Below the pieces are notes generated by a model, which saw nothing but the letters and a program-made list of their open reading frames with translations, had not been told where the DNA came from and did not search any database. DNA of 64,000 nt from a phage: the sequence record OZ346205.1; one strand, 5' to 3'. Within the stretch, counting starts at the first letter, position 1. The number at the start of each line of letters is the position of its first letter. Both the position numbers and the translations under genes were made by a program. This document shows, piece by piece, positions 30,175-57,738 of this stretch.

Positions 30175-30512
30175 GTTTGTGGAGAAATATCGTTAACTAC
30201 GTGTGTGGCAATCCAACTCCTGAAGAGAAGGATGTTGTGATTCACGATTTTACTAAAAGATCTCGTGAAAAAGATCTACTGCTAACAAAGGTGACTGATA
30301 AAGATCCTGCAGTAGGGGACTGGGCAGGTTTTGCATTCACATCGGACAAATACACCTTTAACAAAGGTGACTACCTTGTTGTGGATTTTAACGAAGACAT
30401 CGAGGGTGCTGAACCTTACTATCAGACCCTTATTGTTGCAGGGTGTGTTGATCTCTCTGCAGGCATGCACAGTTTGATTCTTTTTGAGCTTGACTCTGAA
30501 GACCTTGAGTAG
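30171..30512 (+). CDS. hypothetical protein (113 aa)
   Basis: Track ORF; start overlaps helicase stop. Confidence 0.45.
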   Translation: MSLWRNIVNYVCGNPTPEEKDVVIHDFTKRSREKDLLLTKVTDKDPAVGDWAGFAFTSDKYTFNKGDYLVVDFNEDIEGAEPYYQTLIVAGCVDLSAGMHSLILFELDSEDLE

Positions 30513-30573
30513 TAAGATGTGAGTATAAAGGGGAGGCCTCCTCCCCACAAAAAACTAAGGAGAGCACCAAACG

Positions 30574-46283: not shown

Positions 46284-46529
46284 ATGAACAAAGGGTGGAC
46301 ATTTGTAGACGGCGTTAAAAACATGCCTCTAGGAAAGTATATTGTAGCCATGGCAGATGAGAATGGCAAGGTGGATTTCGGAGTTTGCGAGGTTGTTCTT
46401 GCAGGATCTGGTGACTATGCTCACAAAACTGGGATAATTAACGGTCATTTCTACTTTGATTACAACCCTGTTGTGGCGTATATGGCTATGCCAGAGTTCG
46501 AGCTCCCAAAGGAGGGTGCGGATGTTTAA
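46284..46529 (+). CDS. hypothetical protein (81 aa)
   Basis: RBS AGGAGA then ATG. Confidence 0.5.
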   Translation: MNKGWTFVDGVKNMPLGKYIVAMADENGKVDFGVCEVVLAGSGDYAHKTGIINGHFYFDYNPVVAYMAMPEFELPKEGADV

Positions 46530-46719
46530 GCTTAAATCTGCATGGAACATCGCTGTGGGGGACGAGATCCGCATCCCAGGTGGAAAGACCATTATGAAGA
46601 TATCTCGTATCGAGTACGAAGGTGATCGTGTATTTCATATCTTTGCAGAAGATGGTCGAGAAATTTATATACAGGCAGGCTCTCACATCTATATTCGTAA
46701 GAAAGGGGACGACAAATGA
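46522..46719 (+). CDS. hypothetical protein (65 aa)
   Basis: ATG after AAGGAGG; overlaps upstream stop. Confidence 0.45.
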   Translation: MFKLKSAWNIAVGDEIRIPGGKTIMKISRIEYEGDRVFHIFAEDGREIYIQAGSHIYIRKKGDDK

Positions 46720-47045
46720 CAGAGATCATCATTTCAACTGCAGGGTATGTGTTCCTGACAATCATTGCACTGACCATTCTGGTGGTGGTATATGGAATTG
46801 TTATTCTCCCTATTCTTGAGACAATTAGTTTGTGTCGGTGTTGGAGAAAGGCTTACGGTCCACAGCCGTGGAAGGACTGGCCCCACCTGGTGCACATAGC
46901 GTTCTCTTATGCTTATGATCACGCCAGCAGTGCATGCATAACCGGGTATCACGCCCACAACTGGAGCTGGGAAGGGTTGAGGAAATGGAATGTTACAAAG
47001 ACCATACCTCTGCGCATGTACAAACCTAAAAACAAAGACAGCTGA
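46716..47045 (+). CDS. hypothetical membrane protein (109 aa)
   Basis: Track ORF; hydrophobic N-terminal helix. Confidence 0.5.
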   Translation: MTEIIISTAGYVFLTIIALTILVVVYGIVILPILETISLCRCWRKAYGPQPWKDWPHLVHIAFSYAYDHASSACITGYHAHNWSWEGLRKWNVTKTIPLRMYKPKNKDS

Positions 47046-47359
47046 TACTTGAAAATCCCTGGCATATCAAGTGTAAGGAGGATTTCTAAAATGGATTTCC
47101 TCCTTTTGATATTTCACCGGGCCAGATATTTTAAAATTCTTAGAAAATCAGAAAATGGATCGAAAACTAAAATGGATTTTTCAAGACAGGCACGATAAGA
47201 TGTGCTGCTCATTCTATCGTTCGCACCGTACTTTAAGTCACTATTCCAGATTTTTCCGCACATACTCTCACCCTTCTACCAGAACTTTCCCAGCTTACCT
47301 CTGACCTTTTATAACAATAAGTCCATTATTATCAGAAAGTTTCGGCACATCTCTTTCGG

Positions 47360-47506
47360 TACTCGATCTGTTTTTCATTTCAAAGACCTGATTTTCTGAA
47401 AATTTTTCTCGATAAATTTCTTAGTACTCGATCTGTTTTTCATTTCAAAGACCTGATTTTCTGAAAATTTTTCTCGATAAATTTCTTAGTACTCGATCTG
47501 TTTTTC
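47360..47506. repeat. 65-bp tandem direct repeat, two exact copies plus a degenerate third
   Basis: Unit TACTCGATCTGTTTTTCATTTCAAAGACCTGATTTTCTGAAAATTTTTCTCGATAAATTTCTTAG at 47360-47424 and 47425-47489; third copy diverges after 17 nt. Confidence 0.85.
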
Positions 47507-47660
47507 GTTTTCTGAATCGGATTTTCTGGAAATCGTTCCAGCTCTCGACCTGAAATTTTTGGGGACGAAATCGATTTTTCGTTTTCAGAAATGGATTTTT
47601 AAAATTTCTATATGGGAATATTTTATGGGATACTGTTTTATAGGAAATTGTTACGGAGGG

Positions 47661-47678
47661 TAATTAGCATGCTAATTA
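47661..47678. repeat. perfect 18-bp palindrome (operator-like)
   Basis: TAATTAGCATGCTAATTA is its own reverse complement. Confidence 0.8.
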
Positions 47679-48127
47679 AATTTATTAAATGCGAGGAGTT
47701 CTCATTTAGAATTTTGAATGATAATCATTCTCGTTTGCAGAATAACGGGCAGGCCCGGTGATTGTCTCCCGGCCCCTACTGCCCCGGCTTGTTATTATAG
47801 TATCACACAGGACAAAGAAAGCAAGGATTTTTTGCATAAATTTTTAAATGATAATGATAACCGTTCTCATTTTATGCAGCGCCCATCCCCGGTGGTTGTC
47901 TCCCCCGTCACCGGTGCCTGCCGTCCTTTCGATAGGTATATCGTGCCACCTGGCGGGGCCGCTGTCAACACTTTTCAAAAAATTTTTCTAACCTGATGCG
48001 CTAACCGCTGCAACCTGGCGGGGTCAGCCTGGCAGGACCTAACTGACCGGGTAGGAGAGAATGAAGGCTTGTAAACCTGGTGGGCCTATGCTACAGGATA
48101 GGTAACAATTGAAGAGGAGGTACAAAA

Positions 48128-48295
48128 ATGAAAGGTAATATGATCCCCCTAGAAAATGTAGCTATTAATGACGCTGAGGCTATCGCCCTGGTTGAAAAGG
48201 CTATGGCGGGAGCGTTGGAACATAAAGAAGAGTACGAAAAATGGTGGTTAACCTGGCGGGGGCGGCAGGTGGATTCTATCATAAAAATAATTTAA
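48128..48295 (+). CDS. small hypothetical protein (55 aa)
   Basis: ORF below the track size cut-off; strong RBS GAAGAGGAGG 7 nt upstream. Confidence 0.35.
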   Translation: MKGNMIPLENVAINDAEAIALVEKAMAGALEHKEEYEKWWLTWRGRQVDSIIKII

Positions 48296-48303
48296 AATAG
48301 TCG

Positions 48304-48331
48304 TTGACAACAAGGTTAATCATGGTATTAT
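48304..48331 (+). promoter_or_regulatory. sigma70-like promoter (cassette)
   Basis: TTGACA, 16-nt spacer, TATTAT. Confidence 0.45.
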
Positions 48332-48381
48332 TACCCTACAAGGTGAACAACACCGCACTAACCAGTAAAGAGGATAAATTT

Positions 48382-48579
48382 ATGAACGCATACGGGATCA
48401 AAGTACGTCGCAACACTCGCCAGGTGGTCACCAATCAAGTGATTTGCCGGGTGGATGTAACCATCAACAACGGGCAAGGCCTTTATAAATTTCGTCGCGG
48501 TCATAGCTATACCCTGCAACAGCTTAATCGTTGCGCCCTGACAAAAGGTCAGATCAACCATTGGTTTAATAAAAAATAA
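48382..48579 (+). CDS. small hypothetical protein (65 aa)
   Basis: ATG after AAAGAGGA; track ORF start trimmed (upstream part overlaps the promoter). Confidence 0.5.
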   Translation: MNAYGIKVRRNTRQVVTNQVICRVDVTINNGQGLYKFRRGHSYTLQQLNRCALTKGQINHWFNKK

Positions 48580-48582
48580 GTA

Positions 48583-48611
48583 TTGACATACAGTCCGACA
48601 CCAAATACACT
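48583..48611 (+). promoter_or_regulatory. sigma70-like promoter (cassette)
   Basis: TTGACA, 17-nt spacer, TACACT. Confidence 0.45.
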
Positions 48612-48643
48612 AAAAGCACAAAAGACACTAAGAGGATAAAATC

Positions 48644-49042
48644 ATGAAAACCACTACCTTTAATTTTGATAATGCAGACTTTTCTTTTTCTGATGTCAAG
48701 AACTGCCGCCGTGATCGTGGATTTTACAAGGCTTATAATCTGGTGGGCCTGGACGATGACAATAATTTGCACGAAGTAGCTGAGATCCGGTATTATGCCG
48801 CCGCCAGCGGTAACACTAACTACTGCGTTTTTTGGATACACGACAACAAGAACAATAAGTACGGTTATACTGGTGGCAAGGCGAGCGGTCACGGTTACGA
48901 TAAAGCTAATGCAGCACTTGAGAGCGCATTAAATGCTATGGGGATCACTGCCAACGGCTGGATCTATGAAGAAGAGTTTTTGTCGGCACTTGCTGACCAC
49001 CTGGGCTATAAAAAGCACATTGTAACATGCGCCCACGAATAA
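48644..49042 (+). CDS. hypothetical protein (132 aa)
   Basis: RBS AAGAGGA then ATG. Confidence 0.55.
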   Translation: MKTTTFNFDNADFSFSDVKNCRRDRGFYKAYNLVGLDDDNNLHEVAEIRYYAAASGNTNYCVFWIHDNKNNKYGYTGGKASGHGYDKANAALESALNAMGITANGWIYEEEFLSALADHLGYKKHIVTCAHE

Positions 49043-49048
49043 AAATTG

Positions 49049-49105
49049 TTGACACGCTGCAAAATTCAAGTAAACTAGTCACAAAAGGCGGGAATGTTTC
49101 CCGCC
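49049..49105 (+). promoter_or_regulatory. sigma70-like promoter plus 5' leader hairpin (cassette)
   Basis: TTGACA, spacer, weak -10 (TAAACT); hairpin GGCGGGAA-tgt-TTCCCGCC then CAACACAAAGGAAAAAGATC ATG. Confidence 0.4.
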
Positions 49106-49124
49106 AACACAAAGGAAAAAGATC

Positions 49125-49529
49125 ATGAATAAGAACGTACGCCGCATCATGAACGAACTGGCAAACGATGAAAAAATTATTGACATGCATTTGATCAACA
49201 TTTGCCGCCGTTGTGTAACATACAACAACCGCGCCGCAAAAGCGCGTGAGATGAACGCAAAAGGCACCTTAAAGCCATTCCAGGTGGTGGTAAAGGCCAT
49301 TAAAGATGTAACTAATACGGCAAACCAGGTACAGGGGAACACCAACGAGAGTACCAATATTGATCCGGCTTACATCATGAAACGGATCCGGACCTGCAAG
49401 AACAAAGAGCAAGTGTATAATGTCATAGACTGGTTGGATTCTATGGGCGATGTGGTGTACAATAGATTCTCGGCAGCTATTGAGATCCAGCTTGACAGGT
49501 TAGACGGTAAAGTACTTAAAACTTACTAA
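49125..49529 (+). CDS. hypothetical protein (134 aa)
   Basis: Track ORF behind cassette leader. Confidence 0.55.
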   Translation: MNKNVRRIMNELANDEKIIDMHLINICRRCVTYNNRAAKAREMNAKGTLKPFQVVVKAIKDVTNTANQVQGNTNESTNIDPAYIMKRIRTCKNKEQVYNVIDWLDSMGDVVYNRFSAAIEIQLDRLDGKVLKTY

Positions 49530-49530
49530 A

Positions 49531-49576
49531 TTTATTTTTAGATGGCCTTGACTCCAGGGCCATCAATAAAGTAAAT
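49531..49576 (+). repeat. conserved about 45-bp palindromic element, copy 1
   Basis: TTTATTTTTA-GATGGCC-ttgactccag-GGCCATC-AATAAAGTAAA, immediately after a stop codon. Confidence 0.6.
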
Positions 49577-49609
49577 TAATCTCAGCTAAGCGAAAAAGGG
49601 GGCTTTAAG

Positions 49610-49729
49610 ATGAGCACTACACGCCAATACACAAAGGTAACTATTATCGCCTGCGTTGTCGGTTACATCCTGGCGCAAATGTTAATGAGTAGCGCTAACA
49701 GTTTTGCAAAATTTTTCTTAAATTTTTAA
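49610..49729 (+). CDS. small hydrophobic peptide (39 aa)
   Basis: ORF below the track cut-off; RBS AAAGGGGG; one predicted TM segment. Confidence 0.35.
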   Translation: MSTTRQYTKVTIIACVVGYILAQMLMSSANSFAKFFLNF

Positions 49730-49783
49730 TTGACAAGCTAACTTAGATTGATATACTTAAACACGTAAACGGGAAAACTTCCC
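49730..49783 (+). promoter_or_regulatory. sigma70-like promoter plus 5' leader hairpin (cassette)
   Basis: TTGACA, 16-17-nt spacer, TATACT; hairpin GGGAAAACTTCCC then ACACAAAAGGAGAAAACACC ATG. Confidence 0.5.
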
Positions 49784-49808
49784 AGAACACACAAAAGGAG
49801 AAAACACC

Positions 49809-50150
49809 ATGACTACTATGGCCGCCGCAGAAAAAGCTATTCAGATCGCCGCACTGAAAAAACAGATCGCAGACCTTGAGAACAAGATCGATAACTTTGA
49901 AATCGACGAGGACAAGTACGACGAAAACTATGATGAATGGTTAGACGAGATCTACGGCGAAATTATGATCGGAAACATTTCTTTTCTTCCGTCGCGTATC
50001 CTCAAGGAGCTAGATCCTATCGCTTACCGCTGCGGATTTAGCGACTACATCGACAGCCTGGATATTGAGGACGATGAAGAATACCAGGAATTACAGACAG
50101 AGTTAGAAGAAGCAAAAGAAGAGCTTGCAGAACTGGAAGAAAACGAGTAA
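49809..50150 (+). CDS. acidic coiled-coil-like protein (113 aa)
   Basis: Track ORF; Glu/Asp-rich with heptad-like pattern. Confidence 0.55.
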   Translation: MTTMAAAEKAIQIAALKKQIADLENKIDNFEIDEDKYDENYDEWLDEIYGEIMIGNISFLPSRILKELDPIAYRCGFSDYIDSLDIEDDEEYQELQTELEEAKEELAELEENE

Positions 50151-50163
50151 GATTATTTTTAGA

Positions 50164-50207
50164 TGGCCTTGACTCCAGGGCCATCAATAAAGTAAACTTT
50201 ATACTGT
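50164..50207 (+). repeat. conserved about 45-bp palindromic element, copy 2
   Basis: Near-identical to 49531-49576. Confidence 0.6.
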
Positions 50208-50239
50208 TAACACTGAACTAATGCATAGGAGTTAAAACC

Positions 50240-50485
50240 ATGGCAGCACTAATCACCAAATATTATGCCCCTACCAACACCAAAAGCGCCCGTATCATGG
50301 TAAAAGGCTTCGGACGTAAAAAGGTGTACACCTGGGATTATGCCTTAGACACGGAAGACAACTACACCAACGCGATGACCGATTTTATTAATGATCTGAA
50401 CACGCGGATCTTGACAAATTATAAAATTACCGATATTGCCTATATAGGGGAAGGCGGGATCTGTTTTGTCGGTATCGTCAAATAA
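50240..50485 (+). CDS. hypothetical protein (81 aa)
   Basis: RBS AGGAG then ATG. Confidence 0.5.
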   Translation: MAALITKYYAPTNTKSARIMVKGFGRKKVYTWDYALDTEDNYTNAMTDFINDLNTRILTNYKITDIAYIGEGGICFVGIVK

Positions 50486-50487
50486 GC

Positions 50488-50530
50488 TGTTTTTTCGGTG
50501 GTCCTGGTAGCAGGGCCATCTATAAAGATA
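50488..50530 (+). repeat. degenerate copy of the about 45-bp element
   Basis: TTTTTCGGTGGTCCTGGTAGCAGGGCCATCTATAAAGATAG; retains GGGCCATC.ATAAAG core. Confidence 0.4.
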
Positions 50531-50560
50531 GTTTATCAATACAATGAAAGGAGAAAGTAC

Positions 50561-50914
50561 ATGATCAGCGGGGCAAGTTTTATTATTGGCGCTATTGCTA
50601 CGGCTTTAATTGTAAACAAGATCCAATCTAAAAACGAAAAAGATAGCAACGCCCTTACAGAATACCCGTTTTGGGTATTCAACGACAATGAAGACTATAT
50701 TATCAAGTACAAGAATGAGAAGGGCGACCAGGTAACACCGCGACCGATCCCGGCTTACAAGATGCAAGAAACACTATACCGCCTAAAGGCTGGAGGCGCA
50801 AAAATCGTAGACTTTTGGGGATACGATCACACAGATCAGGAAGTTATAAAGCGCCGTATCCGGGCTATTCAGGCCAATATTGAAGTTAGCAAGGGGGGAA
50901 TATATGAAGATTAA
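50561..50914 (+). CDS. membrane-anchored hypothetical protein (117 aa)
   Basis: ATG after AAAGGAGAAAG; N-terminal TM helix. Confidence 0.5.
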   Translation: MISGASFIIGAIATALIVNKIQSKNEKDSNALTEYPFWVFNDNEDYIIKYKNEKGDQVTPRPIPAYKMQETLYRLKAGGAKIVDFWGYDHTDQEVIKRRIRAIQANIEVSKGGIYED

Positions 50915-51101
50915 TTTTGAGAAGATTGTAAAGCGATCTCATGCTTCCGAAGAGCTGCCGGAACGCCGCCAGCGCAACAATAAACTGAATAAGCCAAAAA
51001 GATTTGGGAAGATCTGGCGGAATCATTATGATCGCAAATTACCGGGCCTGCTTTTGGAACGTGAACGACAGGCGGAACGATACCGCCACAAAGGCAAATA
51101 A
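50904..51101 (+). CDS. small basic protein (65 aa)
   Basis: ATG after AAGGGGGG; Arg/Lys-rich. Confidence 0.45.
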   Translation: MKINFEKIVKRSHASEELPERRQRNNKLNKPKRFGKIWRNHYDRKLPGLLLERERQAERYRHKGK

Positions 51102-51109
51102 CAACCAAC

Positions 51110-51136
51110 GCCCCGCCATTGTGCGGGGCTTTTTAT
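51110..51136 (+). terminator. intrinsic terminator
   Basis: GCCCCGC-cattgt-GCGGGGC followed by TTTTTATTT. Confidence 0.6.
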
Positions 51137-51282
51137 TTCTATCCTACGAATAGCGCCCCTGGTTGGCCCTGTAAGCGCCAAAAAGGCCCCACCTATGCAA
51201 TCGCCCACCTTTAACCTGAAAACATCGCTTAGGGCCGTTTTATGGCGTTAAAAATATCATTGACAGTGATTTTATTTAAAGC

Positions 51283-51311
51283 TTGACATCTTAAACAGGT
51301 TAGCTATACTA
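51283..51311 (+). promoter_or_regulatory. sigma70-like promoter (cassette)
   Basis: TTGACA, 16-17-nt spacer, TATACT. Confidence 0.45.
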
Positions 51312-51344
51312 ACCACATCAAAGAGAGAGAAAGGAGTAAACGCC

Positions 51345-51605
51345 ATGCGTAAATTAAAAAATTTTGATAAAGTTGATGTTGTCCTGAATAATTTTTACTA
51401 CTGCAACAACAAGGCCATTTGGTGGCGTGATAGTTCCACCGATAAAGTCAAGGCGCGCTTTCTCCAGGGGCACTGGCAAGGCCGCCCAGTGATTAAAATC
51501 ATGGGGCAATTGGTAGCGTTTAAAAATTGCCGCCGTGTTGATGACGTTGAAGAGATCTTGAATATTTTACGCCACAATAATTTAAAAAATAGTGTTGACA
51601 AGTAA
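51345..51605 (+). CDS. hypothetical protein (86 aa)
   Basis: RBS AAAGGAG then ATG. Confidence 0.5.
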   Translation: MRKLKNFDKVDVVLNNFYYCNNKAIWWRDSSTDKVKARFLQGHWQGRPVIKIMGQLVAFKNCRRVDDVEEILNILRHNNLKNSVDK

Positions 51606-51652
51606 ATCTCAATAAGTATACTTAAGCACACAGGCGGGAAGTTTTCCCGCCA
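51595..51652 (+). promoter_or_regulatory. sigma70-like promoter plus 5' leader hairpin (cassette)
   Basis: TTGACA, 16-17-nt spacer, TATACT; hairpin GGCGGGAA-gtt-TTCCCGCC then leader. Confidence 0.5.
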
Positions 51653-51679
51653 CTAACAAAGAAAATAGGAGAAAATATC

Positions 51680-52303
51680 ATGACCACCGTTAACATTACC
51701 ACAGGTTGCAATTTATCTTTCGACGTGCTGACCGACGAACAAAAAGAAAAAGCTGTTGAAATGGTCCGCGAAAGAGAAGAACACAGCGGGGATAACTTTT
51801 TTGCAGAAAGTGTAATTGAATACTATAAAGAATATGTTTTTCCAGAGTACGGGCTTGAAGATACCAAGGTACAGTGGTCCGGCTTTTGGTGTCAAGGCGA
51901 CGGCGCATCAATTAGCGCTGAAAATGTAAACTTAGAAAAATTCTTGCGTAAGGTTAAAGCGCTTACAAAATTTCGCTCAATTAGACACTTGTTCGGCACA
52001 ATGCACGATGGCGAACTATCAGCCAGCGTTGAACGTATCCCGTTTAGCCATTATCATCACGAAAACACAATAGGCGGGTGCATCGATACCAACTGGCTAG
52101 ACCTGACCACCAAGCAAGAGGATAAAATTGAAGAGCTGGAAGAGCTGATCACCGAGACGGTACGGGAGCTATCCCGCAAGGTTTACGTAGACCTGGAGCA
52201 GGCCTATCTTGAACAATTCACTACCGAAAACCTGATCGGCCTTATCGAGGCCAATGATTGGCGGTTTGATGTGGATGAGTATGGCGAGATGACTTTTTCA
52301 TAA
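51680..52303 (+). CDS. hypothetical protein (207 aa)
   Basis: Track ORF behind cassette leader; no motif recognised. Confidence 0.55.
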   Translation: MTTVNITTGCNLSFDVLTDEQKEKAVEMVREREEHSGDNFFAESVIEYYKEYVFPEYGLEDTKVQWSGFWCQGDGASISAENVNLEKFLRKVKALTKFRSIRHLFGTMHDGELSASVERIPFSHYHHENTIGGCIDTNWLDLTTKQEDKIEELEELITETVRELSRKVYVDLEQAYLEQFTTENLIGLIEANDWRFDVDEYGEMTFS

Positions 52304-52311
52304 ATAAAGTG

Positions 52312-52367
52312 TTGCAATAACCTAAAAACCTGCTATATTAAAACTCAAGGGGCAAGACGTTTGCCCC
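52312..52367 (+). promoter_or_regulatory. sigma70-like promoter plus 5' leader hairpin (cassette)
   Basis: TTGCAA, spacer, TATATT; hairpin GGGGCAAGACGTTTGCCCC then CACACAAAACAAAGAGGAAAACATC ATG. Confidence 0.45.
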
Positions 52368-52392
52368 CACACAAAACAAAGAGGAAAACATC

Positions 52393-52773
52393 ATGAAAAA
52401 CACTACTAAAGCTATTGACACCGTTATGTTTAACCTGGTTACCTTTCGCGAGGATATGAAAGATCTTCCACGTGAAACAGTGTGCGATCACATTGAAAAC
52501 TATCGCAAACTAATCAAAGAGTTGCCTTTAAAACGTGACCAGTATGCGGCTAACGCCATGCTTAATGCCATGATCAAAAAGATGATTCAGTGTGATTTAA
52601 CTCTGGCCTATGACTATGCGGGTGGTCGTTTTGCAGTATACAATCAGCCCGTGCCCGGTATGGGCACCACCGAAGAATTGCACGCGCTCAATCTAAAACA
52701 AGACGTATGGGATAACATGCCCCGCGTGGTGGTGTGGGCAGAAAGCGGAAAGATTTACGGCGATAATTTTTAA
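52393..52773 (+). CDS. hypothetical protein (126 aa)
   Basis: Track ORF behind cassette leader. Confidence 0.55.
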   Translation: MKNTTKAIDTVMFNLVTFREDMKDLPRETVCDHIENYRKLIKELPLKRDQYAANAMLNAMIKKMIQCDLTLAYDYAGGRFAVYNQPVPGMGTTEELHALNLKQDVWDNMPRVVVWAESGKIYGDNF

Positions 52774-52783
52774 TCAGGTAACA

Positions 52784-52809
52784 GGCGGCATATTTGCCGC
52801 CTTATTGTT
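52784..52809 (+). terminator. intrinsic terminator
   Basis: GGCGGCA-tatt-TGCCGCC followed by TTATTGTT. Confidence 0.5.
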
Positions 52810-52837
52810 AAACAGAGTTGCAAAAGAGGTACATAGA

Positions 52838-53209
52838 ATGGAATTTATTATTTTGGCTGTAGTAGTTGCCTTGTTCAACGCCTGGATCGCTGGCAAGATG
52901 GGTAGATCCGCCTTTTTATGGTTTATTATATCTATTTTCCTGGGGGTGGTTGCAACTATTGTACTTGTTATCCTTGCAATTGTTGACAAGGGGAATAATA
53001 GAAAGGGTAAAGTATTTTCAGACCTGTACGACGCTCAAACGTTTGTCAACGCCTATTATAGTGATCTTCCAGTCTCCCTACGCTGCAGCCTGGCACAACA
53101 AGTTTTCGATGAGGCTAAAACCAGAGATCAAGCCCATGAGATATGTTTAACTGAGGCGGATCGCCTATTTGAGAGGAATAGAAAATATGTGGGCCAACCG
53201 TTTAAATAA
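52838..53209 (+). CDS. two-TM membrane protein (123 aa)
   Basis: ATG after AAAGAGG; two hydrophobic helices. Confidence 0.5.
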   Translation: MEFIILAVVVALFNAWIAGKMGRSAFLWFIISIFLGVVATIVLVILAIVDKGNNRKGKVFSDLYDAQTFVNAYYSDLPVSLRCSLAQQVFDEAKTRDQAHEICLTEADRLFERNRKYVGQPFK

Positions 53210-53432
53210 TGCCACGTTAATTAATCCCTTTAGTGAAGATTTGAAGCCAGCCGCCTGGCGTGATGGATTCAATAACGAACGCTTTATTTTCAAGCCTGAT
53301 CTTGAGGAATTTTATAACAATGGATCGAACAACAGCGGAGATAATTTTTCTTGGGATGTGCGTGGTGATGGTACTCCTGGGGGCCATTGTAAACCACGTC
53401 ACTACTACCAGGAGGAAAGAGGGAGACGATGA
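53187..53432 (+). CDS. hypothetical protein (81 aa)
   Basis: ATG after GAGAGGAA; overlaps upstream gene end in another frame. Confidence 0.4.
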   Translation: MWANRLNNATLINPFSEDLKPAAWRDGFNNERFIFKPDLEEFYNNGSNNSGDNFSWDVRGDGTPGGHCKPRHYYQEERGRR

Positions 53433-53548
53433 CAACCAAGGATAAGCCCCGTACCGATAAGGCGCGCCGGGTTATGGTATGGCTTGAGATCATCGCCCTT
53501 GAAATATTGCTAGGCGTAGGGATGTACTTTATCGCTGTAAGTAACTAA
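53429..53548 (+). CDS. small membrane peptide (39 aa)
   Basis: ORF below the track cut-off; RBS AGGAGGAAAGAGGGAG; hydrophobic C-terminal half. Confidence 0.3.
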   Translation: MTTKDKPRTDKARRVMVWLEIIALEILLGVGMYFIAVSN

Positions 53549-53551
53549 GAG

Positions 53552-53582
53552 CGGCCCCCGATCATGGGGGCCTATCTTTTAA
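53552..53582 (+). terminator. intrinsic terminator
   Basis: GGCCCCCGATCATGGGGGCC hairpin followed by TATCTTTT. Confidence 0.55.
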
Positions 53583-53602
53583 AAAATTTTTCTTCCGGGG
53601 TG

Positions 53603-53655
53603 TTGCAATCCGGTCCGGAATGTGGATAATAACAATCAACGGGGAGCTAATCCCC
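53603..53655 (+). promoter_or_regulatory. sigma70-like promoter plus 5' leader hairpin (cassette)
   Basis: TTGCAA, spacer, TAATAA; hairpin GGGGAGCTAATCCCC then leader. Confidence 0.45.
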
Positions 53656-53686
53656 ACCACCACAAAAACCAGAAAGGAGAAACAAA

Positions 53687-53887
53687 ATGAGCAACAATAT
53701 CCGCGTTATTAACTTCAAAAAAGAAGAAAAAATTGCCGTGCTGATTGACGGTCAAGAAATCTTCAAGGGCGACTATGAAGATCATCAAACGGCGATTAGT
53801 ATCACTCGCGTGATTGGTTATCATAATTTCTACCCCCAAGGCGCTGAGGCAGCAGTTAAACGAATCAAAGAGATTGTAGGCCTGTAA
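53687..53887 (+). CDS. hypothetical protein (66 aa)
   Basis: Track ORF behind cassette leader. Confidence 0.5.
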   Translation: MSNNIRVINFKKEEKIAVLIDGQEIFKGDYEDHQTAISITRVIGYHNFYPQGAEAAVKRIKEIVGL

Positions 53888-53888
53888 A

Positions 53889-53935
53889 ATTTATTTTTAG
53901 ATGGCCTTGACTTCAGGGCCATCGATAAAGTAAAT
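53889..53935 (+). repeat. conserved about 45-bp palindromic element, copy 3
   Basis: TTATTTTTAGATGGCCTTGACTTCAGGGCCATCGATAAAGTAAA. Confidence 0.6.
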
Positions 53936-53980
53936 TTAAACCCTGTTAAAATACCACGCAGTTAACAAGGAGTGATAGAC

Positions 53981-54280
53981 ATGTTTATCCAGGCTAATAA
54001 TCTTTATTTCTTTGATGGTCAGATCGTAGATGGTGTGGAAGTGGAGATCACCGGGTGCCCTGGCGGTCAGGCTATGACTTTTCGGAATAATGCCTTTGAT
54101 GATTCTCATATCGTTATGAGAATGGAAGTTACGAAGCTGGACGACAAGAAAACACTTATTGACTATTCTGTGAAAGATCATCCAGACTACCGCATGATCC
54201 ATGGTGATTTGTGCATTGTTGACCGTGACAAGGTGGGCGGCATTGTGATCGCTATTGTGAACGATGTTTTCTCAAACTAA
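53981..54280 (+). CDS. hypothetical protein (99 aa)
   Basis: ATG after AAGGAG. Confidence 0.5.
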   Translation: MFIQANNLYFFDGQIVDGVEVEITGCPGGQAMTFRNNAFDDSHIVMRMEVTKLDDKKTLIDYSVKDHPDYRMIHGDLCIVDRDKVGGIVIAIVNDVFSN

Positions 54281-54297
54281 TTTCAGCAGGCGATTTT

Positions 54298-54648
54298 ATG
54301 AAAGTCAAACTATATTACCTTAATGAGCTTAACCCCCTTGCCCAGGTCCGCGCCCTAGCTAATACCTTGATTTGTGAGAAATCTGTATATTGTGTTGAGC
54401 TTAACGCCATGCGTGAACGTCTCAAAGGTGGTTACTTTGACATCCATGCTGCAATCAACGGCCTGAATATGGAATTTATACGCTTACGTAACAGCCGCCG
54501 GAATCTGGCAAGAATGGAACAAGATCCGGCCCACCTTCGTAAGCTGGTTATTGAAAATCATCTGATGTTTAATGCCGAGGGTGATTATTACCATTTTCAC
54601 CGCAAACGCTGGTACCGTGGCGGCAATACAGGCAAGAATGCAAAATAA
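54298..54648 (+). CDS. hypothetical protein (116 aa)
   Basis: Track ORF. Confidence 0.5.
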   Translation: MKVKLYYLNELNPLAQVRALANTLICEKSVYCVELNAMRERLKGGYFDIHAAINGLNMEFIRLRNSRRNLARMEQDPAHLRKLVIENHLMFNAEGDYYHFHRKRWYRGGNTGKNAK

Positions 54649-54683
54649 GGCCCCTAGCAGGGCCTGCAGCAATATAATCACAT

Positions 54684-54717
54684 AAAGGCCATGCGGTTGC
54701 ATGGCCTTTATTATTTT
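54684..54717 (+). terminator. intrinsic terminator
   Basis: AAAGGCCATGC-ggt-TGCATGGCCTTT hairpin followed by ATTATTTT. Confidence 0.55.
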
Positions 54718-54765
54718 GGCGTTACAACGGCATACGGGGCGCTTAAAAAATTTTTAAAGAAGTAC

Positions 54766-54818
54766 TTGCATCATTCCCGACAATATGGATAATAAGAGTT
54801 GTCGAGGGGGAGGCCCCC
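54766..54818 (+). promoter_or_regulatory. sigma70-like promoter plus 5' leader hairpin (cassette)
   Basis: TTGCAT, 17-nt spacer, ATAATA; hairpin GGGGGAGGCCCCC. Confidence 0.45.
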
Positions 54819-54850
54819 AATCGTTGACCAGATAGATAGGAGTTAAAATC

Positions 54851-55135
54851 ATGGCTATTGTTACCGCTGGCGATGTAGTAGAAATGGAAGCAAAATACTT
54901 AAAAGCGGGTATGCACATCCTACGGAATGATCAAGAGCTATTATTAACGATGGTTGACTATAATCACGGCCAGGATTATCCAAGCATCGACTACTTTTTT
55001 GAGTATGTTGATGAAGAGTTGAAAGAGGATGAGGCCTATTGCGGTGAGTTCTGCAACTTCTTTTGTCCTGATGAGGTTGTAAAGGTTATTTATCAACCTG
55101 GCGTAGCTTTCCCGCTGCACGCTATCAATAAATAA
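54851..55135 (+). CDS. hypothetical protein (94 aa)
   Basis: RBS AGGAG then ATG. Confidence 0.5.
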   Translation: MAIVTAGDVVEMEAKYLKAGMHILRNDQELLLTMVDYNHGQDYPSIDYFFEYVDEELKEDEAYCGEFCNFFCPDEVVKVIYQPGVAFPLHAINK

Positions 55136-55190
55136 ACCTGGCGGGGCCGAAAAGGCCCCCAATTATGAAAATAAAGAGAGGCAAATCATC

Positions 55191-55424
55191 ATGATGGAAC
55201 AAATTAAACGCGCCGAGGCTATTAATGGCAACGTGATCTATTTTGTCAGCAAAAACGAAAAAGGCGTACCATATGCGGCAGTAATAGTACAACCTGACGG
55301 CGATTATTGGTTTACTGTGTACGGCGCTTATTCTTTTGGGCGTCCAGTGCATGATAAAATTTTGAAAGTAGCGAACCCTACCGGGAAGAATATCACAGCA
55401 GAAAAATTTTTTGAAAATAGTTGA
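55191..55424 (+). CDS. hypothetical protein (77 aa)
   Basis: Preceded by hairpin GGGGCCGAAAAGGCCCC and RBS AGAGAGG. Confidence 0.5.
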   Translation: MMEQIKRAEAINGNVIYFVSKNEKGVPYAAVIVQPDGDYWFTVYGAYSFGRPVHDKILKVANPTGKNITAEKFFENS

Positions 55425-55474
55425 CATGACCATATAAGACTGTAATATATAAATCAAAGGGGGCAACGAACCCC
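55421..55474 (+). promoter_or_regulatory. sigma70-like promoter plus leader hairpin (cassette)
   Basis: TTGACA, spacer, TAATAT; short GGGG-caacgaa-CCCC stem. Confidence 0.45.
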
Positions 55475-55499
55475 ACCAACTACAAAGAGGATAAAAATC

Positions 55500-55679
55500 A
55501 TGGCTATTATTGCAAAGACTGAGATCATAGGCTTAGATTCTATTCTCCTCGCATATGAGGAAGCTATAGAAATGTATGTGGTTTCCTATGGTGAGTATAT
55601 CCGTGAATATAAATCTATTGATCTGGCTTTTGAATGTTATATCCGCCAGGTTAATAAAGCGTACGATGATTATCGTTAA
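55500..55679 (+). CDS. small hypothetical protein (59 aa)
   Basis: ORF just below the track cut-off; cassette leader CAAAGAGGATAAAAATC ATG. Confidence 0.4.
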   Translation: MAIIAKTEIIGLDSILLAYEEAIEMYVVSYGEYIREYKSIDLAFECYIRQVNKAYDDYR

Positions 55680-55685
55680 AATAGT

Positions 55686-55739
55686 TTGACAACAGCCATC
55701 TTACAAAGCATAATACATAAGGCGGTGGAATGGTCCGCC
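55686..55739 (+). promoter_or_regulatory. sigma70-like promoter plus 5' leader hairpin (cassette)
   Basis: TTGACA, spacer, CATAAT; hairpin GGCGGTGGAATGGTCCGCC. Confidence 0.45.
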
Positions 55740-55766
55740 ACCTGGAACAAAGAAGAGGTAAACACC

Positions 55767-56012
55767 ATGAAAAGCAATAAAGGTTATAACGGTTACAAAA
55801 ACAAAACTCATTGGAATGTAAGCCTTTGGATTAATAACGATGAGTCATTGTACCGGTTGGCCCAAGGCTTTATTAACGCCAATGCTAATCGTAATGATGC
55901 GGCGCGGGATATGATGCTTTTTCTGGAGCTAACCGGACAAGATAAGACCCTGGACGGCTTCAAGTACAGCACTACGGCGATCCGTGCCGCGATGGTTGGA
56001 ATGAAACACTAA
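55767..56012 (+). CDS. hypothetical protein (81 aa)
   Basis: ATG after AAGAAGAGG; last clear plus-strand gene before the strand switch. Confidence 0.5.
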   Translation: MKSNKGYNGYKNKTHWNVSLWINNDESLYRLAQGFINANANRNDAARDMMLFLELTGQDKTLDGFKYSTTAIRAAMVGMKH

Positions 56013-56067
56013 AAGCACATAGCTGCCTTACCCTGGGGCTGTGGTAGCGGCCCCATGAATAAGGTTA

Positions 56068-56550
56068 CTAACAGAAGAGAATAAACACCATGAAACAGAA
56101 ATTAATCGATGCAGTGATCTTGGTTATTGCCCTGGGTATTGGCCTGATTGCAACCATGTCTAATATGATCTTGTCTTCCAACGGTATCGGGTGAGGTTGG
56201 CAAATGATCACTAACAAAACAGGCAAAACGGAATTTTTACGCAACTTACAGATCGGCAAGCCTGAGATCTGGTACTGCACTAAAACACCGCGTGACGAAA
56301 TGGCTTCAAAAGGGGTCATGAACGAATAAACGGCATCATCATCTGCTTCAGGGAATGCTCCCAAAGACTTCATGTCTGAGCCCTTGACAAATACAAGGTT
56401 TTGATCAAAAGCTTCTTGGGGATCAATCCGATACATATTTCGTAGAATATCGCTTACCTCCTCATCAAGAGGTGAGTATGCTGTGCACGTTTTTCCGATC
56501 AAGCTTTGAGAATCAGGGTATCCACCTGAAGTTTTAAAATAAACAATCAT
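56068..56550 (-). CDS. hypothetical protein; 3' extent uncertain
   Basis: RBS GAGGTGA before the ATG at 56550; N-terminal about 75 residues look protein-like, the remainder is Cys/Pro-rich and overlaps plus-strand small ORFs. Confidence 0.35.
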   Translation of the reverse strand: MIVYFKTSGGYPDSQSLIGKTCTAYSPLDEEVSDILRNMYRIDPQEAFDQNLVFVKGSDMKSLGAFPEADDDAVYSFMTPFEAISSRGVLVQYQISGLPICKLRKNSVLPVLLVIICQPHPIPLEDKIILDMVAIRPIPRAITKITASINFCFMVFILFC

Positions 56551-56640
56551 ATAGTATCACCTCTGGTAAGAGATGGGATTCCTTTCCCACAAATAATTAC
56601 AAACCTTCCTTATCGAGGAAGTATGCTAATCCAAGCAGGA

Positions 56641-56910
56641 TTATTCCTCTACAATCTCATACACATCAGGAGTTACAATCAACTCTTCTCCGTTACCCGG
56701 TGCAATAAACACCACCAAACCTTCAGGTGTGTGCTTTTTAGCCATCTCGATAACATCTTCCCGCAGGGCTGGCTCCATCAGATCAAAACCTTCACCCAGG
56801 GCATCACGAACCACCTTCATATAGTCCACTGGTTGTGCTTCAACAATCATGCCTTCAACCAGACCACAATTTTTGTCTGCCAGCTCAGTTTTGAATAATT
56901 TAATTTTCAT
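56641..56910 (-). CDS. hypothetical acidic protein (89 aa)
   Basis: RBS GAGGAGACC before the start. Confidence 0.5.
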   Translation of the reverse strand: MKIKLFKTELADKNCGLVEGMIVEAQPVDYMKVVRDALGEGFDLMEPALREDVIEMAKKHTPEGLVVFIAPGNGEELIVTPDVYEIVEE

Positions 56911-57047
56911 TTAGAGGTCTCCTCAATTATTTGATATTAATAGCCGTAACCTAACACATTAACTACAACTGCGATTGCAAACATAATTTCAAAGCATGCA
57001 ATCTCTACATTTGGGACTAATTTCTTGATCACACCCATTGTAGCACC

Positions 57048-57365
57048 TCATTCTCTAAAGTCAATCTTTACTTTGCCTTTCCCCTTACCTTTCTTTCCAC
57101 CGCATTTAGCCAGTTGACGTGCTGCAACATCTACCATACGGTCAGTTGCCTCGTAAGCATCACTGCCTTTAGCTTTGGCAATAACTTCTTTTCCAGAATT
57201 GTCAAAAATGAACGCCATAACTTCCTGGTGATCATTTTCAACTTTTACACTCACACGTGCATAGTTGGCAGAGGGATGCAAACGCTCCAGCTTAGACATT
57301 TTGTGGGAAATGAAAGACACCATACCTTCAGGGATTTCTACGTTGCCAGTGATTTCAATTTGCAT
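57048..57365 (-). CDS. hpf: ribosome hibernation promoting factor / RaiA (YfiA)-like protein (105 aa)
   Basis: MQIEITGN.VEI...KLE...V.VKVE...G.EVIAKAKG.D.Y.A.D...ARQL.K aligns along its length with the bacterial HPF/YfiA pattern as recalled. Confidence 0.7.
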   Translation of the reverse strand: MQIEITGNVEIPEGMVSFISHKMSKLERLHPSANYARVSVKVENDHQEVMAFIFDNSGKEVIAKAKGSDAYEATDRMVDVAARQLAKCGGKKGKGKGKVKIDFRE

Positions 57366-57447
57366 AACGTGTTCCTTTTAAAGAAGAGGGAACCAAACCC
57401 TCTTTGAAAACAATGATACTAAATCTGAAGCGTTGTGTCAACAGTTT

Positions 57448-57738
57448 TTACAGATTGTTGTCGATAGTTTTTAAAATATCCACAGCAAGATCTGCCATTT
57501 TTCGAACATACTCTGCAAACTCAACAGGATCCTTGATCAAAGAATTCACAGGGTCGTACCCTAGAGCGTTCAAAATGGCTGCAGCATCTACAACCTTCTC
57601 ATCATTTGCGAAGATCTCTCCATCAAACTTGTAGGTCCATTTTGAGTCAATCTTGGCAGGGAATGATTGGTCAACGCTTGTTACACCATCCTTTTTAAAC
57701 GCTCCGGTGTTATCAGTGTCTAGAACTAAATCCATCAT
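57448..57738 (-). CDS. hypothetical protein (96 aa)
   Basis: Track ORF. Confidence 0.45.
   Translation of the reverse strand: MMDLVLDTDNTGAFKKDGVTSVDQSFPAKIDSKWTYKFDGEIFANDEKVVDAAAILNALGYDPVNSLIKDPVEFAEYVRKMADLAVDILKTIDNNL

Follow-up and report, generated by a model that had tools for sequence, protein, structure and literature searches.

A Recurrent Promoter–Hairpin–Leader Module in the Early-Gene Array of an rV5-Like Coliphage

The Array and Its Genes

The 64,000-nucleotide (nt) stretch of phage record OZ346205.1 that we analysed (the window) contains, between positions 48128 and 56329, a dense array of 24 plus-strand open reading frames (ORFs) with products of 34-207 amino acids (aa), as derived from the sequence and the accompanying ORF list. 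Eight of these ORFs are headed by a composite intergenic element that joins a promoter, a GC-rich palindrome and an A/C-rich leader; we refer to this element as the module, or class A (A1 to A8), and it is the main subject of this report. A second element, a 54-nt hairpin with two stems (class B), lies in front of four further ORFs. A preceding sequence-only reading of this DNA had pointed to the dense run of small plus-strand ORFs, and in this respect it was borne out.

The 8-kb array region matches 283 phage records, the top ones being those of rV5-like coliphages (genus Vequintavirus) with 93-96% identity, and the same genes are annotated in the phages Murica, isim and AlexBoehm; the plus strand of the window corresponds to the minus strand of phage rV5_ev168. 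In the rV5 genome paper (Kropinski et al., 2013; PMC3606486), the region is assigned to the early transcription unit, in which short hypothetical genes abound. The segment 48128-56329 is an early-gene array of a Vequintavirus. Its identity to relatives is about 92-96%, compared with 98.6% for the adjoining 8 kb; the region varies across relatives, as the sequence-only reading had supposed when it named invariance as the finding that would count against it. The ORFs, with the element that stands in front of them, are as follows (TM, transmembrane).

48128-48295, plus strand, 55 aa
48382-48579, plus strand, 65 aa, behind a hairpin-less promoter
48644-49042, plus strand, 132 aa, behind a hairpin-less promoter
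49125-49529, plus strand, 134 aa, behind module A1
49610-49729, plus strand, 39 aa, behind class B copy 1
49809-50150, plus strand, 113 aa, behind module A2
50240-50485, plus strand, 81 aa, behind class B copy 2
50561-50914, plus strand, behind class B copy 3
50904-51101, plus strand
51345-51605, plus strand, 86 aa, behind a hairpin-less promoter
51680-52303, plus strand, 207 aa, behind module A3
52393-52773, plus strand, 126 aa, behind module A4
52838-53209, plus strand, 123 aa, two-TM protein, annotated as 'putative holin' in BASEL phages
53187-53432, plus strand, 81 aa
53429-53548, plus strand, 39 aa, TM peptide
53687-53887, plus strand, 66 aa, behind module A5
53981-54280, plus strand, 99 aa, behind class B copy 4
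54298-54648, plus strand
54851-55135, plus strand, 94 aa, behind module A6
55191-55424, plus strand, 77 aa, behind a promoter-less hairpin
55500-55679, plus strand, 59 aa, behind module A7
55767-56012, plus strand, 81 aa, DUF7249, behind module A8
56090-56194, plus strand, behind a promoter-less hairpin
56204-56329, plus strand, shortened by a deletion

Searches of the deduced proteins against Pfam yielded no family for 18 of the 20 ORFs tested, the two recognised being Phage_1_1 (65 aa) and DUF7249 (81 aa), while all 20 fell into PHROGs groups of unknown function; PDB sequence searches with three of the ORFs revealed no function. Hydropathy analysis predicts that five of the ORFs encode membrane peptides or proteins. 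Both the lack of recognisable families and the presence of several membrane peptides agree with the sequence-only reading. Its suggestion that host-takeover or anti-defence inhibitors are encoded here found no support in these searches.

A Promoter, a Hairpin and a Leader Form a Composite Module

The full module precedes the ORFs whose ATG lies at positions 49125, 49809, 51680, 52393, 53687, 54851, 55500 and 55767.

49049-49124, plus strand, module A1: promoter TTGACA-16-TAAACT (49049-49076); hairpin GGCGGGAA-tgt-TTCCCGCC (49087-49105; -13 kcal/mol); leader 49106-49124
49730-49808, plus strand, module A2: promoter TTGACA-16-TATACT (49730-49757); hairpin GGGAA-aac-TTCCC (49771-49783)
51595-51679, plus strand, module A3: promoter TTGACA-16-TATACT (51595-51622); hairpin GGCGGGAA-gtt-TTCCCGCC (51633-51651)
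52312-52392, plus strand, module A4: promoter TTGCAA-16-TATATT (52312-52339); hairpin GGGGCAA-gacgt-TTGCCCC (52349-52367)
53603-53686, plus strand, module A5: promoter TTGCAA-16-GATAAT (53603-53630); hairpin GGGGA-gctaa-TCCCC (53641-53655)
54766-54850, plus strand, module A6: promoter TTGCAT-16-GATAAT (54766-54793); hairpin GGGGG-agg-CCCCC (54806-54818); weakest match to the consensus
55421-55499, plus strand, module A7: promoter TTGACA-16-TAATAT (55421-55448); hairpin GGGG-n8-CCCC (55459-55474)
55686-55766, plus strand, module A8: promoter TTGACA-17-CATAAT (55686-55714); hairpin AGGCGGTGGA-atgg-TCCGCCACCT (55720-55743)

Its parts follow one another in a set order: an AT-rich stretch, visible as a run before the -35 of the full units, a sigma70-type promoter (TTGACA, TTGCAA or TTGCAT, a spacer of 16-17 nt, then TAnnnT or GATAAT), the GC palindrome, an A/C-rich and U-poor leader, a Shine-Dalgarno (SD) sequence and the ATG. 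The stems are perfect GC-rich palindromes of 4-8 bp, or of 10 bp with an internal mismatch, and enclose loops of 3-8 nt, with folding energies of -4 to -13 kcal/mol; the leaders of the eight units measure 19-31 nt. Over all units compared, the stem starts 9-13 nt past the -10, and 17-31 nt separate the hairpin from the ATG; the position of the hairpin is therefore tied to the promoter and not to the ATG. Base composition sets the leader apart as well: it consists of 58% A, 19% C, 16% G (nearly all of it in the SD sequence) and 8% T, compared with 25% T in the region overall.

When the window was scanned for a promoter, a hairpin and an SD-ATG pair occurring in this order, eight sites were detected, six of them in the array. 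Since 20 shuffled versions of the window gave either no site or a single one (mean, 0.2), the module is present far above chance. Two further units of the array lie just below the thresholds of this combined scan and were found by a laxer scan or by eye. The 64-kb window thus contains ten module-like sites, all but two of them inside the 8-kb array. The other two are the following.

30490-30573, plus strand, module of the same design (TTGACT-17-TAAGAT; GGGGAGG-cct-CCTCCCC; A-rich leader), in front of a gene for a 442-aa N6/N4 DNA methylase
57366-57441, minus strand, module-like site (TTGACA-17-TATCAT; AAGAGGG-n7-CCCTCTT), in front of a gene for an S30AE ribosome-hibernation factor

Conservation of the Module Parts

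To follow the evolution of the individual parts, the sequence orthologous to each module was taken from nine relatives (Murica, isim, AlexBoehm, Gotham, rV5_ev156, CM1, Mangalyan, NHEP1 and A140), and the fraction of positions differing from the window was determined. The -35 had changed least (0.7%), followed by the stem (2.8%), the -10 (3.6%), the leader (5.3%), the promoter spacer (7.1%), the segment between the -10 and the stem (9.6%) and the loop (23.8%). Stems hence change 8-fold less than loops and 3-fold less than the adjoining unpaired bases, a pattern that demonstrates purifying selection acting on the stem as well as on the two promoter boxes, -35 and -10.

MAFFT alignments of the units placed the hairpins out of register, and covariation was therefore assessed by comparing orthologues unit by unit. 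Nearly all orthologous variants still fold, and the changes in the stems either compensate one another or lengthen the stem (units in front of the ORFs at 52393, 53687 and 55767). The architecture as a whole is far less uniform than the sequence-only reading had envisaged.

Two of the loops differ from those of relatives by an exact reversal. In A3 (51641-51643) the window has GTT where all nine relatives carry AAC, and in A1 (49095-49097) it has TGT where isim carries ACA; both pairs are exact reverse complements. These two flips show that neither the sequence nor the orientation of the loop is constrained. Such flips are the signature of an inversion at the centre of a palindrome and are consistent with template switching mediated by a hairpin or cruciform.

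Related Modules in Other Phage Lineages

Modules of the same design are found well outside the genus Vequintavirus. Phage alia (Justusliebigvirus, Stephanstirmvirinae) carries 13 of them, even more uniform than those of the window, within the opening 10 kb of its early array; they consist of TTGACA-16/17-TAnnnT, the sequence 'gtatCACATAG', a hairpin GGCGGGAAA-tgg-TTTCCCGCC or variants of it, an A-rich leader and the ATG. At least 16 modules are present within 17 kb of the 348-kb jumbo phage PBECO4 (Asteriusvirus), with TTGCAA/TTGACA-16-TATAAT, the sequence 'gttttACATcga' and hairpins such as GGGGAGAA-atga-TTCTCCCC. A blast search with a single alia module retrieved 157 phage records with 3-8 places each, mostly phi92/phAPEC8-like phages of about 150 kb whose hosts belong to Escherichia, Klebsiella, Enterobacter, Serratia and Pectobacterium. 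A search of IMG/VR for an exact pattern (promoter plus GCGGGAAnnnTTCCCGC) found only eight stretches, on contigs of 15-153 kb, the pattern being too strict to map the distribution of the module.

Hairpins of unrelated sequence hold the same position in the three phage lineages, and in all 28 units listed from them the purine (G-rich) arm comes first and the C/pyrimidine arm second. The module is an early-expression design that spans lineages rather than a local curiosity.

In the alia unit at 4883-4945 and in several PBECO4 units, the initial transcribed sequence reads ATCGAGAG and begins 6-7 nt after the -10; the T7 A1 transcript opens with the same 8 nt (T7 position 498). The T7 A2 and A3 transcripts also start with or near small hairpins.

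Other Signals in the Array

Some ORFs are preceded by a promoter or a hairpin only, and the array holds four canonical intrinsic terminators, the only ones in it.

48304-48331, plus strand, hairpin-less sigma70-type promoter TTGACA-16-TATTAT, before the 65-aa ORF
48583-48611, plus strand, hairpin-less sigma70-type promoter TTGACA-17-TACACT, before the 132-aa ORF
51283-51310, plus strand, hairpin-less sigma70-type promoter TTGACA-16-TATACT, before the 86-aa ORF
55143-55190, plus strand, promoter-less hairpin GGGGCC-gaaaa-GGCCCC with an A-rich leader, before the 77-aa ORF
51110-51137, plus strand, intrinsic terminator, GCCCCGC-n6-GCGGGGC followed by TTTTTATTT
52783-52810, plus strand, intrinsic terminator-like hairpin, AGGCGGC-n6-GCCGCCT followed by TATTGTT
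53553-53582, plus strand, intrinsic terminator, GGCCCCC-n6-GGGGGCC followed by TATCTTTT
54682-54719, plus strand, intrinsic terminator, 13-bp stem followed by TATTTT

Promoter-less hairpins precede the two ORFs with the ATG at 55191 and 56090. About six ORFs overlap or closely follow the preceding ORF, or show no recognisable signal, and several units pass without a break into the promoter of the following one. Compared with all nine relatives, the window has an extra 17-23 nt (51262-51283), with a second TTGACA at 51262, just upstream of the promoter that serves the 86-aa ORF. No promoter could be recognised for the block of three overlapping genes at 52838-53548, which is flanked by two terminators.

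The sequence-only reading had assigned a promoter, a hairpin and a leader to every ORF, in at least ten consecutive units, most of them with a terminator of their own. The design itself stands, since it occurs in front of eight of the 24 ORFs and above chance, but it does not extend to each ORF (three have a promoter only, four a class B element), and the eight full units are interspersed among others rather than lined up ten in a row. Terminators of their own can be credited to about half of the transcription units, only four being canonical.

A 54-nt Two-Stem Hairpin Follows Four Genes

The class B element is present in four copies, each located directly behind the stop codon of a gene; the ORFs downstream of them start at 49610, 50240, 50561 and 53981.

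49526-49579, plus strand, class B copy 1, between the 134-aa and 39-aa ORFs (-22 kcal/mol)
50147-50200, plus strand, class B copy 2, between the 113-aa and 81-aa ORFs
50482-50535, plus strand, class B copy 3, divergent (68% identity), without TTGACT
53885-53938, plus strand, class B copy 4, between the 66-aa and 99-aa ORFs

Each copy folds into two stems of 10 bp separated by a 2/3-nt internal loop and closed by a tetraloop (-20 to -24.5 kcal/mol). A covariance model built from the four copies recovered all of them at the same places in nine of nine Vequintavirus loci; in the other phages it detected a single copy, that of phi92-like KKE7M, alia and PBECO4 having none. Its scores are 57-81 bits on the plus strand vs 25-47 bits on the minus strand. 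Among 23 distinct variants read in the sense direction we counted 397 Watson-Crick pairs, 57 G·U pairs and 6 mismatches, whereas the same columns read as antisense give 397 Watson-Crick pairs, 5 G·U pairs and 58 mismatches. Changes on both sides affect 5 of the 20 pairs, and the divergent copy 3 keeps all 20 through compensatory and G·U changes. These G·U pairs and compensatory changes show that class B is a sense-strand RNA structure. No U-tract follows the stem on either strand, the flanks being U-rich on the 5' and A-rich on the 3' side. The pairing pattern indicates that class B is a structured element of the sense transcript, and not primarily a promoter or an intrinsic terminator; with its clear covariation support, it is a new structured RNA candidate.

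Deposited annotations describe these sites differently: as terminators in Murica, and as promoters in Gotham, where PhagePromoter places the -35 (TTGACT) in the hairpin loop. Such a sigma70 promoter, which would correspond to a promoter-early stem-loop (PeSL; see below) of the subclass in which the stem-loop overlaps the -35, could draw on TTGACT-18-TAAAT/CT in three of the copies, on downstream genes that have no other recognisable promoter, and on a KKE7M crossover that falls in its AATAAAGTAAA. The copy at 50482-50535 and its orthologues, however, lack TTGACT and keep all 20 pairs intact, an 18-nt spacer is suboptimal for sigma70, an antisense or DNA reading turns the 57 G·U pairs into mismatches, and the missing U-tract speaks against a terminator on either strand. 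We therefore consider the annotated functions unlikely, and the sequence-only reading, which would likewise have taken class B sites for terminators or promoters, has to be revised in favour of four copies of a structured sense-strand RNA.

With about 20 bp of sense double-stranded RNA, an internal loop and an intercistronic position, class B has the form of an RNase III site. The RNase III sites in the early genes of phage T7 are similar to it in size, internal loop and intercistronic position. By this analogy, class B is probably an RNase III-type processing site, or a barrier to 3' decay, in operons of two to four genes.

Cassette Exchange with Junctions within Modules

Comparisons across lineages revealed four events that are bounded by modules. 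Phage KKE7M carries the segment 49729-50202 (module A2 and the 113-aa ORF, up to the class B hairpin) at 94.7% identity where alia has a different cassette; its left crossover lies in the promoter spacer and its right one in AATAAAGTAAA. In the Vequintavirus NHEP1, a block of 598 nt is 96.5% identical to alia, with the left junction at the -35 of A7 and the right one within a hairpin loop. The DUF7249 ORF (81 aa; 55767-56012) is missing from Gotham, rV5_ev156 and CM1, in which A8 is fused directly to the next ORF; the flanks of the lost gene share a 32-nt overlap in their leaders (AGAGGTAAACACCATGAAA vs AGAGAATAAACACCATGAAA). Mangalyan, finally, has gained two alia-type modules together with ORFs after the DUF7249 gene. 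Taken together, the alignments demonstrate that recombination junctions between lineages lie inside modules, in the promoter, the hairpin loop or the leader.

The partners of a given ORF also change. PBECO4 contains homologues of the genes at 51680, 52393 and 55767 within 3 kb, in another order and each behind a PBECO4-type module; for the last of them nucleotide similarity begins 4 nt past the ATG. A variant of the A8 hairpin (AGGCGGTGG..CCACCGCCT) precedes an unrelated ORF in alia, and the alia DUF7249 gene has another hairpin. These comparisons indicate that ORFs and modules re-assort.

Homologues of the DUF7249 gene (80-91% nucleotide identity) are scattered over widely differing phages: jumbo phages (PBECO4, SP27 and Salmonella SD-15), T7-like PGT2, where the gene lacks the module, and members of Phapecoctavirus and of Justusliebigvirus. 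This early gene is very mobile.

Further rearrangements of the region are described here in their own right. Murica lacks 48081-48249, a 169-nt deletion that removes most of the 55-aa ORF and apparently arose by recombination between two related copies of a motif of the AACCTGGCGGGG type. This motif occurs on the plus strand at 47947, 48012, 48250 and 55135 (four copies vs 0.12 expected by chance), and all four copies lead into a GC hairpin. At 56300-56302, about 9.8 kb are missing from the window that are present in more than 150 relatives (AlexBoehm, MZ501048, 87953-97736; L003, 9954-19737). The junction, which has 3 nt of microhomology and was found in no other record of the phage collection, cuts a 71-aa plus-strand ORF to 41 aa, fuses it head-on to a minus-strand array and creates a spurious 160-aa minus-strand ORF (56068-56550). 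With the deletion the window has lost about nine further plus-strand early genes, two of which carry modules, along with 2.5 kb of unannotated DNA and about 17 small genes on the minus strand.

Additional Features of the Window

Upstream of the array, the non-coding segment 47359-47553 holds a 65-bp tandem repeat in two perfect copies and one degenerate copy, and shorter relatives of the repeat continue to 47599; in alia, repeat regions are annotated at the corresponding position. These repeats could be an origin or a packaging-related region. The window encodes elsewhere a DnaB-type helicase, a PIF1-type helicase and an N6/N4 DNA methylase, and it contains a weak match to a family A polymerase. 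A confident AlphaFold model was obtained for the 207-aa protein (51680-52303; predicted local distance difference test score [pLDDT] 84, predicted template modelling score [pTM] 0.74); it gave no significant Foldseek match in the PDB, a PDB sequence search was also without a match, and the PBECO4 homologue is 55% identical over 137 aligned residues. Scanning the window and the AlexBoehm locus for tRNA genes gave no hits. A search of 46500-57500 against Rfam with E values up to 1 returned a sole, chance-level match (Clostridium-PBP, 31 bits vs a gathering score of 94). About 20 unannotated 'Campylobacter phage' records (MG0656xx, UNVERIFIED) are 92-94% identical to the region, and their host label looks doubtful.

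Proposed Function of the Module and Alternative Explanations

The architecture described above is real, conserved, regulatory and recombinational. In the reading that we favour, and which we hold with reasonable though by no means full confidence, the array consists of immediate-early genes in self-contained cassettes whose modules serve both expression and recombination, class B being a second element. The promoters would fire early with the host sigma70 RNA polymerase, and the palindrome would be transcribed as a stem-loop located 3-7 nt from the 5' end of the messenger RNA (mRNA), so positioned as to protect or insulate a short transcript. The U-poor leader would offer few RNase E sites and keep the strong ribosome-binding site open. 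In this manner, a module could drive high, context-independent early expression of whichever ORF comes next. Copies of it within one genome and across coliphage lineages would at the same time supply the short stretches of homology through which ORFs are deleted, inserted or exchanged. At the level of sequence, the junctions described above establish the recombination role. As to the hairpin, a function as a 5' stabiliser or insulator of the mRNA is most likely by analogy, since in Escherichia coli RNase E-dependent decay is slower when the 5' end is base-paired (reviewed in PMC3997798, with the Belasco-laboratory papers listed there).

Several observations weigh against this proposal. Three predicted promoters have no hairpin and two hairpins have no promoter, and three of the rearrangements (the indel of a 116-aa ORF, the 169-nt deletion in Murica and the 9.8-kb deletion) are not bounded by modules. 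At least 80% of the region is covered in 90 records, and gene order within the genus is largely conserved. A literature search found no transcription start sites or RNA half-lives for this phage group. With a transcription start at the usual seventh base past the -10, 3-7 nt remain unpaired in front of most stems, and those alia and PBECO4 units that begin with ATCGAGAG, like the mapped T7 A1 start, would have a 7-nt overhang; this exceeds the few unpaired bases that a classic 5'-terminal stabiliser tolerates. Moreover, in 115 promoter-proximal hairpins the sense and antisense stabilities are equal (p = 0.27); nothing therefore favours an RNA over a DNA role for the class A palindrome.

Three other explanations for the class A palindrome have to be weighed. 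It might be a terminator or attenuator that stops read-through from the upstream cassette and so isolates each cassette, as was first put forward, and tested, for the stem-loops of PeSLs. The stems are GC-rich (-4 to -15 kcal/mol), no other terminator separates many of the units from the following promoter, the vB_EcoM_ASO2A record annotates such a hairpin as a terminator, and the stem-loops of PeSLs were reported to be effective terminators in lacZ fusions. Yet none of the eight stems is followed by a U-tract (0-1 U in the next 8 nt), whereas the four true terminators of the array have one, and a hairpin situated downstream of the promoter it accompanies would attenuate the cassette's own transcript just as much. 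Because of these two features we regard a terminator or attenuator as improbable; the fixed distance to the -10 would, moreover, be needless for it. Terminators acting on the opposite strand find little room, with a minus-strand T-run at only one of the eight class A hairpins.

The palindrome might instead be a DNA operator at +4 to +24, bound by a dimeric phage or host protein that shuts off or times early transcription. Perfect inverted repeats with few G·U pairs, the equal sense and antisense stability, the fixed position relative to the promoter and the purine-first order of the arms would all suit such a site, and an arm family (G/C)GGGAA..TTCCC(G/C) recurs in the three lineages. Within one genome, however, the arms differ widely (GGCGGGAA, GGGGCAA, GGGGA, GGGGG, GGCGGTGG), and their spacing of 3-9 nt would rotate the half-sites against each other; it is this variation of arms and spacing that makes an operator, to our minds, no less improbable than a terminator, and the loops, which change fastest and have twice flipped to their reverse complement, speak against it as well. 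That the palindromes have no phage function at all, being quasi-palindromes of selfish or mutational origin that recombination and template switching have carried along with the promoters, would accord with the flipped loops (GTT/AAC before the ORF at 51680, TGT/ACA before that at 49125), with arms perfected by palindrome correction and with the three hairpin-less promoters, but is scarcely credible given stems that change so much less than loops and adjacent unpaired bases and hairpins of unrelated sequence at the same position in three lineages.

A nut/boxA-type antitermination leader was considered separately and rejected. No boxA (CGCUCUUA-like) beside a boxB hairpin with a conserved loop was found, a few alia units merely resembling boxA; the sequences after the stem vary (AACACAAAGG, ACTAACAAAG, CACACAAAAC), and the loops are the least conserved part.

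Returning to the proposal of self-contained early-gene cassettes, we can extend it, in a tentative manner that we would rather doubt than endorse, to a wider one. At least three unrelated groups of large virulent coliphages, namely the rV5-like Vequintavirinae, the phi92/phAPEC8-like Stephanstirmvirinae and the PBECO4-like jumbo phages, may share a promoter-hairpin-leader adapter and draw their early genes from a common pool by homologous recombination during co-infection, with the palindrome selected both as an RNA element and as a recombination hotspot. The adapter would then amount to an integron-like cassette market without an integrase. The loop flips and the crossover within a loop suggest actual extrusion of the palindrome, or stalling of replication by it.

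If the module works as proposed, PeSL-type shuffling is not peculiar to T4-like phages, and there would be a general trade in early genes among large virulent coliphages, even across family boundaries. The module would mark immediate-early genes, candidates for host takeover or anti-defence, in hundreds of genomes in which they are annotated as 'hypothetical', and it provides natural cassette boundaries for knock-outs and swaps. A promoter, a 5' hairpin and an unstructured leader might also make a compact, portable expression unit for phage engineering.

Comparison with Known Systems

The closest counterparts of the module are the PeSLs of T4-type phages (Arbiol et al., 2010, PMC2839356; Comeau et al., 2014, PMC4122927). 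Both are intergenic motifs of about 80-100 bp in which an AT-rich stretch, a strong sigma70-type promoter, a stem-loop of the GGGG..CCCC type, an SD sequence and the ATG are combined; both cluster in a variable region, ahead of small genes without known function, and both have indel or replacement junctions inside the motif, including the hairpin loop and the segment from the -10 to the ATG, as in PeSL mini-circles. The likeness to PeSL cassettes that the sequence-only reading had noticed is thereby upheld: its parts are present, they stand before unknown genes, and recombination junctions fall inside the motif. There are differences, too. PeSLs are described from T4-type myoviruses, whereas the module occurs in Vequintavirinae, Stephanstirmvirinae and Asteriusvirus (genera Vequintavirus, Justusliebigvirus and Asteriusvirus) and is thus shared between unrelated lineages. 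Its stem-loop has one fixed position, about 10 nt past the -10 and inside the transcript, whereas PeSL stem-loops take five positions, mostly within or upstream of the promoter; and it has no U-tract, which renders a terminator role doubtful. The promoters of the module are, moreover, predicted ones. Judged by its composite motif, its polyG..polyC stem-loop, its association with small uncharacterised genes of a variable region and the junctions within it, the module is a PeSL-like system in non-T4 phages, outside the described PeSL family. In our literature search, no paper was found that applies the PeSL idea to these phages, outside the T4-likes.

The predicted transcript recalls the stem-loop stabilisers in the 5' untranslated regions of ompA and papA (work by Emory, Bouvet, Arnold, Bricker and Belasco, listed in PMC3997798). 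In both cases a stable hairpin near the 5' end is followed by a single-stranded segment with the ribosome-binding site, and protection from 5'-end-dependent attack by RNase E is predicted. The module differs in its predicted overhang of 3-7 nt, which is at or beyond the limit of the classic element, and in being repeated on many short phage mRNAs rather than forming the leader of one specific gene.

With the morons of lambdoid phages and with integron cassettes the array shares single genes that travel with their own signals or plug in behind a resident promoter, and a pool of accessory genes exchanged between genomes. The array has neither an integrase nor an attC-type site, unlike integrons, and exchange apparently proceeds by ordinary homologous recombination at the repeated module; morons, for their part, are not flanked by a conserved linker.

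Class B resembles the early RNase III sites of phage T7 (R0.3-R1.3) in being an intercistronic two-stem hairpin of about 50 nt with about 20 bp and an internal loop, placed inside an early operon read by the host polymerase, where a 3' hairpin would stay on the upstream mRNA. There is no sequence similarity and no Rfam match, and the likeness is one of general form.

The promoters themselves have been predicted before. Sigma70-type early promoters were reported for rV5, with 33 promoters (Kropinski et al., 2013; PMC3606486), and for Certrevirus (Buttimer et al., 2020; PMC7344957), and Gotham carries PhagePromoter annotations at the same promoter sites. These are the same promoters, concentrated among short hypothetical genes. 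The earlier reports end about 7 nt past the -10 and leave the palindrome, the leader and the class B hairpin unmentioned, and 'GGCGGGAA' is absent from the rV5 promoter/terminator table.

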